Source: Halodesulfurarchaeum sp. (GTDB taxonomy: Archaea; Halobacteriota; Halobacteria; Halobacteriales; Halobacteriaceae). Taken from it: a stretch of 64,000 bases of DNA. The notes below the pieces were generated by a model. That model had not been told where the DNA came from. It ran no database searches and saw only the letters and a list, made by a program, of their open reading frames with translations. How positions within the stretch are numbered: the stretch's first letter is position 1; every line of letters begins with the position of its first letter. The translations under genes were made by a program, and so were the position numbers. Shown here piece by piece: positions 25,693 through 29,286 of the stretch. The stretch lies in contig JAXHNL010000002.1 in assembly GCA_034520565.1 (NCBI GenBank), positions 256,001-320,000 on the forward strand, in the 5' to 3' direction.

Positions 25693-26265
25693 ATGTTGCG
25701 ATGGCTGTTGCTGGGGTTGTTGCTTATTCCCCTCGCCGACATCGCCTTGCTGGTGGTCGTCGCCGGGTCGATCGGGTGGGTGCCGACGGTCGCGCTGGTC
25801 GTCCTGACGGCCTTGCTCGGAATGCTCTTCGTCCGGGCCGAGGGCCGGCACACGCTCGGGAAGATCCAGCAGTCTCTCGCTCGCGGGGACCTGCCGACGA
25901 ATCAGGTGATCGACGGGGGCCTGCTCATCGCCGCCGGGGCCTTTCTCCTCACGCCGGGACTGGTCACGGACGCGGTCGGCTTCCTGATCGCCGTCCCGAT
26001 CACGCGCATTCCGATCAGAGTTCTGCTCAAACGCTACGTCATTACGCCAGCGATCGACCGCCAGACCGGTGGGTTCGCCACCGGTCGAATTTACATGGAC
26101 GGGTTCCCCAGCGATGGGAGTCCTGGCAACGGCCCGACCGGGCCGGGCGGCCCCCGAACACCCGGACCGGACCCGAACGGTGGGGCTGGCGGATCCGGTC
26201 AGGGGACGACCGTCGATCTGGGGCCCGAGGACTACGACGTGTCGGTCGAGGACGAGCGGTCGTGA
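25693..26265 (+). CDS. fxsA: FxsA-family membrane protein
   Basis: IPLADIALL...GGLLIAAGAFLLTPGLVTDAVGF. Confidence 0.88.
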   Translation: MLRWLLLGLLLIPLADIALLVVVAGSIGWVPTVALVVLTALLGMLFVRAEGRHTLGKIQQSLARGDLPTNQVIDGGLLIAAGAFLLTPGLVTDAVGFLIAVPITRIPIRVLLKRYVITPAIDRQTGGFATGRIYMDGFPSDGSPGNGPTGPGGPRTPGPDPNGGAGGSGQGTTVDLGPEDYDVSVEDERS

Positions 26266-26300
26266 GTCGGTTTTTTCCCTCGAAACACCTCGCCTGCAGT

Positions 26301-26320
26301 CGAAAGGAAACCCTTTTAGT
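26301..26320 (+). promoter_or_regulatory. BRE/TATA promoter of tRNA-Ile
   Basis: CGAAAGGAAACCCTTTTAGT: purine-rich BRE followed by TTTTAG about 30 nt upstream of the tRNA. Confidence 0.7.
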
Positions 26321-26346
26321 CGGCAGCGGGCAATCCGCAGTTGTCA

Positions 26347-26420
26347 GGGCCAGTAGCTCAATTAGGTAGAGCGCCACTCTGATAAGGTGGAGGCTTGCGG
26401 TTCAAATCCGCACTGGCCCA
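26347..26420 (+). tRNA. tRNA-Ile (anticodon GAT), no intron, CCA not encoded
   Basis: Acceptor GGGCCAG/CTGGCCC + A, D-arm GCTC/GAGC, anticodon arm CCACT-CTGATAA-GGTGG, T-arm TGCGG-TTCAAAT-CCGCA. Confidence 0.96.
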
Positions 26421-26586
26421 CTTCTGGATGACTCAAACCAGGAAGCGACCAGCTTGCTGTGTCGCTTCCTGTTTGATCAGCGGTCTGAAGTGGGTGCTGC
26501 GGATTTGAACCCGGAAGACGTAGCCCGCGAAGCCGAACGAAGTGAGGCGAGCAGGACCGTCTTCATTCGGTTCAAAATCGCACTGG
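26398..26586. repeat. tRNA-derived inverted and direct repeats with two hairpins, downstream of tRNA-Ile
   Basis: 26487-26511 is the reverse complement of 26399-26424 (perfect 14-nt and 8-nt blocks); 26568-26586 matches 26398-26416 at 17/19; 16-bp stem 26433-26449/26461-26476. Confidence 0.85.
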
Positions 26587-26781
26587 TGTAGTCGCTGCCG
26601 AAGGTCCCGACTCTCCGGCCGGAAGGCAGGTGTATTTGCCTTGCAGTCTTTCGCACAGGCACCCCGTGTCCCTCGCTCCCACAGGATTCCGAAAAACCAG
26701 CCTCGCCGGAACTAACCACGAAATCAGGCCCCACAGATGCACCGATCCCTGAAGGGTCGGACGTCCCGGGTTGGAGCGCAC

Positions 26782-28941
26782 CTATCCCGATCCGAACTCC
26801 ACGCCGGTGAACTCGAAGCGGGCCCCGCCGGTCTCGCCCTCGGTGATCGAGACGTCCCAGCCGTGGGCCTGTGCCACCTGTTTGACGATACCCAGCCCGA
26901 ATCCAGTCCCACATTCGCTGGTGGAGTAGCCCGCCTCGAACACGTCAGTGCGATCCGATTCGGGGATTCCAGGACCGTCGTCTTCGACGTAGAAGCCATC
27001 CTCGAGGGACCCAACGGTGACGGTTACGTCGTCGCCGGCGTGTTCGACCGCGTTCCGGAGCAGATTTTCGAGGAGCTGAGACAGTCGATCGCGATCGGCA
27101 TGGAAGGGCGAGGGTCGACTCTCGTCGGTTACAAACCGTAGCTCGGCCCCCTCCGCGCTGTCCGCGACGAGGTCCCATGCCGATTCGACGACGTCCCGTA
27201 TCTCGACCGGCTCCGTCGAACCGATGTCCCGCCCCTCACGCGCCAGCCAGAGCACGTTCTCGATAATCGCCGTCATTCTGTCGAGGGCCGTCTCGATCTG
27301 ATCGAGATGCTCGCTGTCACACTCCTCGCGAACGAGTTCCAACCGTCCCTCCGCGACGGTGAGCGGGTTCCGGAGGTCGTGGGAGACGATACTGGCGAAC
27401 TGTTCCAGACGTTCGTTTTGGCGCTCGAGGGCGTTTCCCTGGGTTCGTTGGTCAGTGATATCCGAAATCACGGCGACGACTTGCTCGACGTCCCCCTCGC
27501 TGGTCGTCAGCGGCGTCGCGTTGATCGAGAGCCATCGCGTTTTTCCGCTTGGCCACTTGATCCCGTGTTCGTAGTCGGTGATCGTCTCGCCCGTGGCCAG
27601 CACTCTCGCAAACGGGAGTTCCTCCCCCGGAATCGGCTCGCCGTCCGCGTCGATAATGCGCCACTCCGGGTCGTCGTACGTCCGCTTGGTGATTTCCGAT
27701 TCGGTGAGCCCCAGTGCACTCTCTGCCTGTCGGTTTGCGCGCGTGATCGTTCCGTCAGTATCGAGCACCGTGACCCCGACAGGGAGCATTTCGAACAGTT
27801 TCGAGAGGAGCGTGTTCTTCTCCTCGAGTTCGTACTGTCGCTCGAGCTGCTCCGTCACTTCGACGAAGTAGAAGGCGATCCCGCCAACTTCGGTGGGATA
27901 GGCCGTGATGTCGAACCAGCCATCGAGTTGTGAGAAGTACTCGACGAATGAGGTCGGTTCTCCTGACTCCATGACCCGGCGGTATTCTTCCTCGAATCGG
28001 GTATCCCTCGCCGCCTCGAAAACGTCCCAGAAATTCCGACCGACGAGGTCCGCCTCGGCCATGTCATAGAGGTCCTCGGCCTGTTCGTTAACGACCGTAA
28101 ATCGCCAGTCTGCATCGACCTCGACGATGGCATCGGTCACCCGCTCGATGATTTGCTCGCGTTTGTGTTCCTGGGTTTTGCGCTCGATGAAGTCACTCGC
28201 CAGCGTGACCAGAATATCGAGCAGATTTCCCTCTTCCGTGAGAAACGGGCCCTCGTCTGCGGCGGGCCGATCCTCGAGATAGACGACTTCGAGTGTGACT
28301 GGTTTCCCATCCGCCGTCGTCGTTCGTGACGTCAGTCGGGTCTCGGTTGGAACGAAATTCGGAGTCGAGACTTCGGAGTCCCGATACCCGAGTTTCGCAG
28401 CCGTGATTTCGGGGTACTGGAACCCCGGGGGTATCCCCTCGACGAACTCCCGAAGTACCGCTTCCATCGGTTCATCGATCCGGACGAGGGTTCGGGTGGC
28501 CCGTTGAATCGCGGACAACTCTTTGACGCGTTCTTCGAGGGTTCGCTCGTACTCCTTGCGGGCGGTGATGTCTCGAAACTGGCAGTGTGTCCGAACGAAA
28601 TTCCCCCGGTCGTCGTATTCGATCGTCCCGTCAAACGAGACGACGATCGGACTGTCCTCACCACGAATGAGCTCAAATTCGACGTTCGAAACCGCACCAC
28701 GGGTCTTGAATTCATCGAAATGGGACGCGAACGTCGACTGCGACTCGTCTGTCAGTATGTCACCGAACCACCGGCCGATGACGTCCTCGCGGTCGTATCC
28801 CAGGGCCTCGAGCCAGGCGTCGTTGACGGAGATGATCGTCCCGTCGGCATCAAGCGACTGGTATGGATGTGGAGCAAACGACTGGGGAATCACACCAGAA
28901 TCCGAATGGTCGCTCAAATTACTGTCAGCAGATCCGTCCAT
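26782..28941 (-). CDS. PAS domain sensor histidine kinase (PAS-GAF-like-PAS-PAS-HisKA-HATPase)
   Basis: VSHDLRNPL, ENLLRNAVEH, EDDGPGIP, GTGFGLGIV; ATG 28941. Confidence 0.93.
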   Translation of the reverse strand: MDGSADSNLSDHSDSGVIPQSFAPHPYQSLDADGTIISVNDAWLEALGYDREDVIGRWFGDILTDESQSTFASHFDEFKTRGAVSNVEFELIRGEDSPIVVSFDGTIEYDDRGNFVRTHCQFRDITARKEYERTLEERVKELSAIQRATRTLVRIDEPMEAVLREFVEGIPPGFQYPEITAAKLGYRDSEVSTPNFVPTETRLTSRTTTADGKPVTLEVVYLEDRPAADEGPFLTEEGNLLDILVTLASDFIERKTQEHKREQIIERVTDAIVEVDADWRFTVVNEQAEDLYDMAEADLVGRNFWDVFEAARDTRFEEEYRRVMESGEPTSFVEYFSQLDGWFDITAYPTEVGGIAFYFVEVTEQLERQYELEEKNTLLSKLFEMLPVGVTVLDTDGTITRANRQAESALGLTESEITKRTYDDPEWRIIDADGEPIPGEELPFARVLATGETITDYEHGIKWPSGKTRWLSINATPLTTSEGDVEQVVAVISDITDQRTQGNALERQNERLEQFASIVSHDLRNPLTVAEGRLELVREECDSEHLDQIETALDRMTAIIENVLWLAREGRDIGSTEPVEIRDVVESAWDLVADSAEGAELRFVTDESRPSPFHADRDRLSQLLENLLRNAVEHAGDDVTVTVGSLEDGFYVEDDGPGIPESDRTDVFEAGYSTSECGTGFGLGIVKQVAQAHGWDVSITEGETGGARFEFTGVEFGSG

Positions 28942-29286
28942 ACGCAACCCAGTACCCGTCCCGTAATATCGGTTCTGGGTGTTCCAGGCCTGATTATAGG
29001 TGTTTCAGGCCCATCATCTGAACGCTACTCGTGATGCATCCAGCATGGTCTTCGTCCCACGGGCGTGGTCGGGAACGACGTTCTCGATATTGGATCGAGG
29101 AAAACGGAAAACCGCGGAGGGTCGGTAATCCGGGGACGATCGCCAAGCCGGCTCACTCCACAATCGGTAGTTCGACGACGAACACGCGTCCAGTTGTGCC
29201 GGCTTGGTTTCGAGTTGCTGACGGTATCGTTCCCGTTCGGTATCATCCGGAAGGTGGACTTCTCTCCCCGTCACGAGAAAACCAGT

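Follow-up and report, generated by a model that had tools for sequence, protein, structure and literature searches.

Nucleotides 26421–26586, directly downstream of tRNA-Ile(GAT) in a 64,000-nt stretch of Halodesulfurarchaeum sp. DNA (contig JAXHNL010000002.1, positions 256,001 to 320,000; hereafter the window), are best read as one old copy of a family of 81–177-nt non-coding insertion cassettes that target the 3′ ends of tRNA genes in Halobacteria, a reading to which we give a probability of about 0.6. Cassettes (units) of this family recur behind many tRNA genes and match their own, cognate tRNA. Their repeats have sharp ends, their orientation to the tRNA is fixed, they are present at a tRNA in one congener and missing in another, and the DNA that they insert is foreign to the local trailer. 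They look like inserted mobile DNA, not like an RNA switch.

The family was noticed when a short-word BLAST search of the Ile trailer against its own genome (G000; 1.86 Mb, 62% G+C, 80% complete) returned matches in the trailers of other tRNAs. Comparison of the 300 nt 3′ of each tRNA in this genome revealed a common plan: the tRNA, a spacer that usually contains a hairpin, an antisense arm, a second hairpin (hairpin 2), and a direct copy of the last 20–22 nt of the tRNA, ending at the discriminator base. An earlier interpretation of the window from its letters alone (the sequence-only reading) had proposed looking for recurrence behind all tRNAs and for agreement with the cognate tRNA, and both were found. 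In G000, a 13-nt tRNA-specific 3′ segment was present again in sense, with at least 11 of 13 positions matching, at most 400 nt downstream of 21 of the 43 tRNAs (13 of them perfect), compared with 32 of 1806 non-cognate pairs and none of 43 upstream regions. By a stricter rule (at least 16 of 20), units were present at 18 of the 43 tRNAs; the Ile unit fails this rule because its sense copy has decayed. In a complete congener, G001, 19 of the 36 tRNAs examined carried units. Units measured 81–177 nt, with a median of 131.5 nt, and often stood in tandem. The censuses of G000 and G001 are the unbiased ones. Loci in other relatives were mostly picked by their match to a strict palindrome pattern (described below), and the counts of array polarity, gapped arms and repeat ends therefore favor well-kept units.

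The repeats end abruptly at both sides. When each unit was aligned to its own tRNA, the block of identity was 20–22 nt in 47 of 76 units, started with the final one or two bases of the T-stem 5′ strand and, in 51 of 76, stopped exactly at the discriminator, giving a direct repeat that spans G52/53 to N73. Longer identity on the right mostly represented the next tandem unit. We also observed that tRNA-Val(CAC) of G000 (C2:1076917–1077145) has a T within the T-stem/acceptor 3′ segment where its own displaced copy, tRNA-Val(CAC) of G001 (L065) and tRNA-Val(GAC) have a C. As the displaced copy keeps the C of these other genes, it preserves an older state of the tRNA.

Comparison of congeners revealed how units come to lie where they do. 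At tRNA-Glu(CTC), the G001 tRNA is joined directly to a trailer that in G000 follows a 108-nt unit, and at tRNA-Tyr, the trailer that directly follows the tRNA in G001 lies behind two units in G000. At neither tRNA is the spacer of an inserted unit related to the ancestral trailer. These are two clean empty/filled pairs, with foreign DNA placed exactly after the discriminator base. Unit numbers were unequal between G000 and G001 at many other tRNAs. Near-identical hairpin-2/spacer modules were shared by Val and Leu tRNAs in G000 and an Ile tRNA in G004, each with its own tRNA-specific arms, and the orientation of units to the tRNA was fixed. Of 16 arrays, 8 had a tRNA-proximal copy that matched the tRNA better than the distal copies did, 1 had a poorer one and 7 showed no difference, which fits entry next to the tRNA.

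The tRNA-Ile locus itself is occupied in some genomes and empty in others. Orthologous loci carried a unit in G010, G007, G001, G004, G008, G033 and G014, as in G000, and lacked one in G011, G003, G029, G031 and G032. Some of the relatives' units contained different spacer/hairpin modules, and in each the sense copy followed the genome's own tRNA. In congener G010, the ortholog has a perfect copy of the tRNA 3′ end at the same place as the decayed window copy (S2 in Table 1), and homology between G000 and G010 breaks off exactly at the end of the sense copy (query position 887). S2 marks the distal boundary of the inserted unit. Since S2 has decayed and the arms are imperfect, the Ile copy is probably no longer active.

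Table 1. Parts of the tRNA-Ile(GAT) locus and its trailer (window coordinates)
Feature	Position	Strand	Basis or remark
tRNA-Ile(GAT)	26347–26420/21	+	ARAGORN; Rfam RF00005, 71.7 bits, E = 2.3e-15; intact, functional gene
S1 repeat (final 22 nt of tRNA-Ile, T-loop to discriminator)	26399–26420	+	
Spacer X, including hairpin 1	26421–26486	+	Inverted-repeat search and DNA fold
Hairpin 1	Arms ~26433–26449 / 26461–26476; apex 26450–26460	+	G-CTTG-C loop
Antisense arm A	26487–26511	+	Complement of the tRNA 3′ part in two blocks with a 3-nt gap between them
Hairpin 2	26512–26567	+	Stem 26514–26520/26558–26564; module type common to 68 units
S2, displaced and decayed direct copy of the tRNA 3′ end	26568–26586	+	17/19 vs 26398–26416; truncated after CTGG

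The pairings that the sequence-only reading had drawn within this trailer were reproduced. The 26498–26511 block of arm A, described as perfectly complementary to the T-arm, is the exact reverse complement (14 of 14) of the T-loop and the 3′ strand of the T-stem (26399–26412), and the 26487–26494 block, read directly, is the exact complement of the acceptor end and the first four trailer bases (26417–26424). The claimed 16-bp hairpin was recovered as a 14-nt inverted repeat with 93% complementarity (26436–26449/26461–26474), which the DNA fold lengthens to ~16–17 bp. The direct T-arm copy received the same score as before, and the two arms reported for the hairpin-2 stem are complementary. The apex of hairpin 2 contains two mini-hairpin motifs on the tRNA-sense strand, GCGAAGC (26527) and ACGAAGT (26537). 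The 166-nt unit has no credible open reading frame. No integrase or transposase adjoins it, as had been noted; the flanking genes encode FxsA (25693–26265) and a PAS histidine kinase (26782–28947, minus strand).

The architecture of the Ile trailer is far beyond chance. The 14-mer of the perfect complement (at most one mismatch) occurred twice in the window compared with 0.03 occurrences expected, and none of 100 shuffles contained two or more. The DNA fold of 26395–26590 reached −51.6 kcal/mol, compared with −29.3 ± 3.4 in shuffles (z = −6.5), and the RNA fold of tRNA-Ile plus trailer gave z = −5.9. The decisive control against chance is the recurrence at many other tRNA genes. In an Rfam search of 25800–27200, the tRNA alone was above threshold, with all remaining matches at E ≥ 1, and a BLAST search of tRNA-Ile plus trailer against plasmid and phage collections returned tRNA matches only. 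The apex region of hairpin 1 (23 nt) was found again, at 96–100% identity, 3′ of tRNA-Met, tRNA-Leu(GAG), tRNA-Val(GAC) and tRNA-Val(CAC). Identification of hairpin 1 as a K-turn or H/ACA element was rejected by eye, its internal G-A pairs not being conserved.

We examined whether the antisense arms, like the sense copies, follow the cognate tRNA. Gapped alignment of the arms gave a score of 13.1 with the complement of the cognate 3′ end and four bases of the trailer, compared with 9.4 for decoys, and the cognate ranked in the top 5% for 21 of 71 units and in the top 25% for 49 of 71. Ungapped matching gave 2 of 43 cognate and 19 of 1806 decoy pairs, which is not significant. Judged by the alignments, the antisense arm is derived from the cognate gene, trailer bases included. 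As it covers trailer bases, it would have been copied from DNA or from a precursor, not from mature tRNA. Antisense arms were much more decayed than sense copies, and the base opposite T54 was G instead of A in 23 of 68 units.

The hairpin apexes carry a strongly oriented motif. Among 72 units, the tRNA-sense strand carried 48 copies of the apex motif GANCGNAGNGA and 47 of its core, GCGNAGC, and the opposite strand 2 and 3 copies, respectively. In G000, 37 of the 204 genomic copies of the motif lie in sense at most 450 nt downstream of the 43 tRNAs. The abstract of PMC13037366 gives GCGNAGC as the consensus of an extraordinarily stable mini-hairpin DNA. The stems of hairpin 2 comprised 62 distinct sequences among 68, with self-complementarity kept. 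As a group, their stability relative to mononucleotide shuffles was weak (mean z = −1.28; below −2 in 19 of 68).

To follow the units beyond the genus, we used a strict pattern, consisting of an antisense T-loop, 25–55 nt and a sense T-loop, with the same pattern read backwards as control. It was detected in 25 of the 41 nearest relatives and, class-wide (58 of 80 genera), in 191 of 301 genomes. Since decayed and variant units escape the pattern, these counts are lower bounds within the class. Of 107 genomes from the phylum's other classes, none contained the strict pattern, which is no proof of absence there. The reversed control had 0 matches in every genome listed.

Some of the tRNAs that carry units also carry integrase-borne elements. 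At tRNA-Arg(TCT) of G000, a ~9-kb integrated element (C2:516872–526012; L031 1373–10513) encoding a DUF1424 Rep, an HFX_2341/Csa3-like protein, an N6 DNA methylase, a helix-turn-helix protein and a tyrosine integrase lies between the tRNA and an antisense-hairpin-sense palindrome that carries the Arg(TCT) 3′ end. A degenerate second element with an integrase remnant is next (C2:526013–530616). Behind the integrase gene at Arg(TCT) there is first a 13-nt copy of the tRNA end that belongs to the element, and a complete unit comes after this copy. In G001, what stands behind such a 13-nt core copy is the unit that directly follows tRNA-Arg(TCG) in G010. Because the same unit directly follows the tRNA in G010, it was resident before the integrase element arrived. 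The 9-kb element was considered as an autonomous parent of the units and was ruled out by the G001 locus, where the element has its own 13-nt core upstream of the resident unit. The same layout of integrase, 13-nt core and unit was present at L032, L033 and L060. A strict palindrome was found no more than 450 nt downstream of only 3 of 30 integrase-homolog loci. Sense copies offer these integrases extra core sites, and units may hitch-hike with the integrases. Separately, C2:709723–710292 in G000 contains a match to the phage-integrase family with an in-frame TAG, ~3 kb downstream of tRNA-Pro(CGG) (706770–706842), which has no unit; this region probably represents one more integrated element, whose integrase may be broken.

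Could the units be what remains of such elements, that is, the left and right ends of integrase-borne plasmids or proviruses, with attR, after internal deletion? The sequence-only reading had offered an attachment-site scar as one of its alternatives. Integrase elements are classically recognized by direct repeats of tRNA 3′ ends, and passages of PMC7002104 and PMC3119063 describe haloarchaeal examples of 27, 43 and 57 nt. In addition, the 9-kb element does lie between tRNA-Arg(TCT) and a palindrome, with a degenerate second copy next to it, and its left end resembles the start of the tRNA-Arg(CCG) unit. However, the part of this explanation that stands is the presence of integrase elements at some of the same tRNAs. 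These elements have a 13-nt core of their own and stand next to the cassettes, not at their source: in G001, the element ends with its own core and the unit behind it was there first, and L032, L033 and L060 have the same layout. Palindromes are rare at integrase loci, integrase presence does not track palindromes, and a narrow size range with a constant internal plan is unexpected from independent deletions. We therefore consider scars an unlikely origin. Another conceivable origin is local rearrangement, in which snap-back or template switching at stable hairpins 3′ of highly transcribed tRNAs produces sense-antisense-sense triplications (tandem inversion duplications) and unequal crossing-over spreads the product within arrays. 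In work on tandem inversion duplications in Salmonella, two template switches at a pair of quasi-palindromes reportedly produce the order sense, hairpin, antisense, hairpin, sense, which is the order of parts in the units. The antisense arm takes in the complement of the first trailer bases, the repeat continues 11 to 58 nt into the trailer at some loci, the G010 tRNA-Ile trailer is duplicated after the sense copy, and module swaps between orthologous units fit unequal recombination. Still, the repeat stops exactly at the discriminator in most units, many of whose sense copies are perfect, and the orientation of the apex motif is fixed. Moreover, the spacers at the tRNA-Tyr and tRNA-Glu empty/filled pairs are unrelated to the ancestral trailer and have homologs at other tRNAs, and spacer and hairpin families are shared between tRNAs and between genera. 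On balance, this explanation too is improbable.

The sequence-only reading had also suggested that the pre-tRNA folds in two mutually exclusive ways. In a broader form of this proposal, the trailer is co-transcribed and the antisense arm and decoy sense copy control folding, 3′ processing or stability of the pre-tRNA, or the long helix serves as a minihelix substrate. The alternative pairings are strong in silico, as the minimum-free-energy fold sequesters the T-arm and the acceptor 3′ strand at the z-score given above, and the architecture is class-wide with a fixed orientation to the tRNA. One contig, from a run guessed to be RNA that may be DNA, spans 26280–26494 and reaches into a variant antisense arm. 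Nevertheless, we found no support for a switch. The transcript strand has no excess of G-T/G-U pairs among 72 units (sense vs other strand, 80 vs 103 with DNA parameters and 164 vs 284 with RNA parameters), and the sense strand has only a slight advantage in folding energy. Decay affects the antisense arms but leaves sense copies perfect, roughly half of the tRNAs have no unit and congeners differ in which do, many units begin with a terminator-like T-run directly after the tRNA, and no Rfam family matches. The apex motif fits the DNA mini-hairpin consensus given in PMC13037366. The decay of the arms, the T-runs and the free gain and loss of units lead us to lean toward an element acting at the DNA level, and a functional RNA is the least probable of the explanations that we weighed. 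By contrast, the other suggestion of the sequence-only reading, a small non-autonomous element that copies its host tRNA's 3′ end, is favored by the recurrence, the cognate copies, the empty and filled sites and the tandem arrays.

For such insertion cassettes, we tentatively propose that tiny gene-less units home to the tRNA 3′ end that matches their arms, using a folded hairpin of antisense guide and sense copy as a self-contained attachment site. They would do so as analogues of integron attC and CTXphi attP or, with a long guide, of IS200/IS605 ends, and would rely on a host or undescribed recombinase; we regard this mechanism as possible, though doubtful. In the favored reading of the units as insertion cassettes, each unit sits immediately past the discriminator base and ends with a 20–22-nt copy of G52/53–N73, which keeps the tRNA intact and displaces the old trailer downstream. 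Further units enter beside the tRNA, building tandem arrays whose distal members decay. Within a unit, the antisense arm pairs with the sense copy at the end, across a hairpin that GCGNAGC-type DNA mini-hairpins cap, and the resulting long hairpin is probably the attachment site of the element. To a site-specific recombinase provided in trans, this hairpin would look like the duplex of its tRNA-gene target, and it may function as DNA folded from a single strand or as a cruciform, in the manner of integron attC and CTXphi attP. Exchange of a single strand with the folded site would yield the order sense, body, antisense, loop, sense, as seen. A second possibility is that the units represent a long-guide version of the IS200/IS605 end architecture. 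The strand bias of the apex motif fits recombination via one folded strand, but the sense strand does not stand out by its G-T count.

Several results weigh against insertion cassettes. No enzyme that would move them was found: members of the SNJ2-like integrase family occurred in 13 of 25 genomes with the strict pattern and in 13 of 16 without it, and the SNJ2-like integrases that adjoin units use their own 13-nt core copy. The Y1 transposase (PF01797), present in 16 of the 41 relatives, showed no association either (9 of 25 pattern-positive vs 7 of 16 pattern-negative genomes), and was not detected in G000 (80% complete). The public Logan contigs showed neither an excised form or circle nor a joint skipping the unit. 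The absence of a G-T excess on the sense strand means that a folding strand is not singled out. The tRNA-Leu(TAG) unit of G001 has a Leu(GAG)-type antisense arm, while the sense copies that flank it are both of Leu(TAG) type. This mismatch is not predicted by a simple crossover in the T-loop and needs gene conversion or true target duplication. Lastly, one family would have to have acquired cognate sense and antisense arms at >20 different tRNAs.

At the tRNA-Ile locus, the coverage gap at 26433–26514 in the public contigs of the best-matching run is uninformative. One contig (run X8) matches the window to 26449 and then continues with the hairpin-1 loop (26449–26461) reverse-complemented, representing either a loop that flipped inside the hairpin or an artefact of de Bruijn assembly at a palindrome. 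In several relatives, contigs of metagenome-assembled genomes end inside units (L012, L016).

Full-text literature searches, and passages of the main texts of PMC3119063, PMC5861418, PMC7002104 and PMC3404096, yielded no description of this architecture. The nearest published elements in these passages are the haloarchaeal PATEs, MITEs (miniature transposable elements with inverted repeats) and SMRs (PMC3119063) and the SNJ2-type integrases, which have a 14-bp core (PMC5861418). In a term search of the latter paper, "inverted repeat", "palindrome" and "hairpin" did not occur (PMC5861418). Like elements of tyrosine integrases that use tRNA genes, SNJ2-type elements among them, whose attL/attR repeats reach from the T-loop or the 3′ core to the end of the tRNA, the cassettes insert at the tRNA 3′ end, restore the tRNA, leave a direct repeat at the far end, have a fixed orientation, occur in tandem and are strain-specific. 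The bounding repeat of the 3′ segment with an intact tRNA and the precise presence/absence junctions expected of such elements were both found for the cassettes. Unlike them, the cassettes have no integrase or any other gene, measure 81–177 nt, and carry a built-in antisense copy of the target as well as two hairpins. Their repeat of 20–22 nt starts in the T-stem/loop, whereas co-resident integrase elements use the 13-nt core.

Integron attC sites and CTXphi attP are imperfect palindromes of ~60–110 nt whose paired arms rebuild the duplex of the target site, and strand exchange takes place with the folded site. The cassettes resemble both, as the arms of their palindrome rebuild the target duplex and the integrated order is sense, body, antisense, loop, sense. 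Resemblance to attC extends to gene-less cassettes in arrays, with the newest at the entry site, and to an inverted core, GTTC.../...GAAC, that recalls R′/R″. In contrast to both systems, the target of the cassettes is a tRNA gene, not attI or dif, the direct repeat is 20–22 nt long instead of 6–7 nt, and the G-T count gives no support for strand-specific folding. We know of no dependence of the cassettes on IntI or Xer.

The cassettes also share features with PATEs and with REP-RAYT systems: all are short and non-coding, lack terminal inverted repeats, have hairpins near their ends, insert in a specific orientation 3′ of the target, and contain sequence 5′ of a hairpin that is complementary to the end sequence, similar to a guide and its cleavage site. 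As described in a passage of PMC3119063, PATEs are miniature IS200/IS605 derivatives of haloarchaea that cause no target duplication and have targets of 4–6 nt. The cassettes differ in that they are flanked by a 20–22-nt repeat, would have a guide of 11–25 nt, and are not tracked by Y1 transposases. Similar to MITEs, the cassettes are small, non-autonomous, multi-copy and flanked by a duplication. However, their ends are not inverted repeats of each other, as the inverted repeats are internal or include the tRNA, and they occupy one defined position in tRNA genes. To our knowledge, the cassettes have no parent transposon.

If the cassettes are active, the tRNA genes of a whole archaeal class would be entry points for an undescribed recombination system, with a target that appears to be chosen through base-pairing arms instead of a dedicated integrase gene. 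Such a system would account for the clutter of hairpins and incomplete tRNA copies that annotators pass over behind tRNA genes, and would provide a new marker of recent genome flux among close strains, ready secondary attachment sites for integrase-borne plasmids and proviruses, and a compact, possibly programmable, module for site-specific insertion. If the units are inert by-products, they would still be relevant to the annotation of tRNA genes and attachment sites and to assembly, since contigs break at these palindromes.

We also noted two further arrangements behind tRNA genes. At loci L088 (G025) and L100 (G036), two tRNA-Asp(GTC) genes lie ~200–300 nt apart and have near-identical trailers, with a unit at the downstream gene only. 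In addition, a second module recurs in trailers after tRNA ends or sense copies, consisting of a short hairpin with the same GANCGAAGNGAG apex followed by a GCGAGCGGTGNAACCGCGAGC hairpin. It was present, for example, in G000 at C2:404216–404270, from C2:1598926 onward and from C2:1246251 onward, and in G001 at L125 and L126. At tRNA-Glu loci, this module ends with the final 5 bases of the tRNA, and it may be another small insert family.

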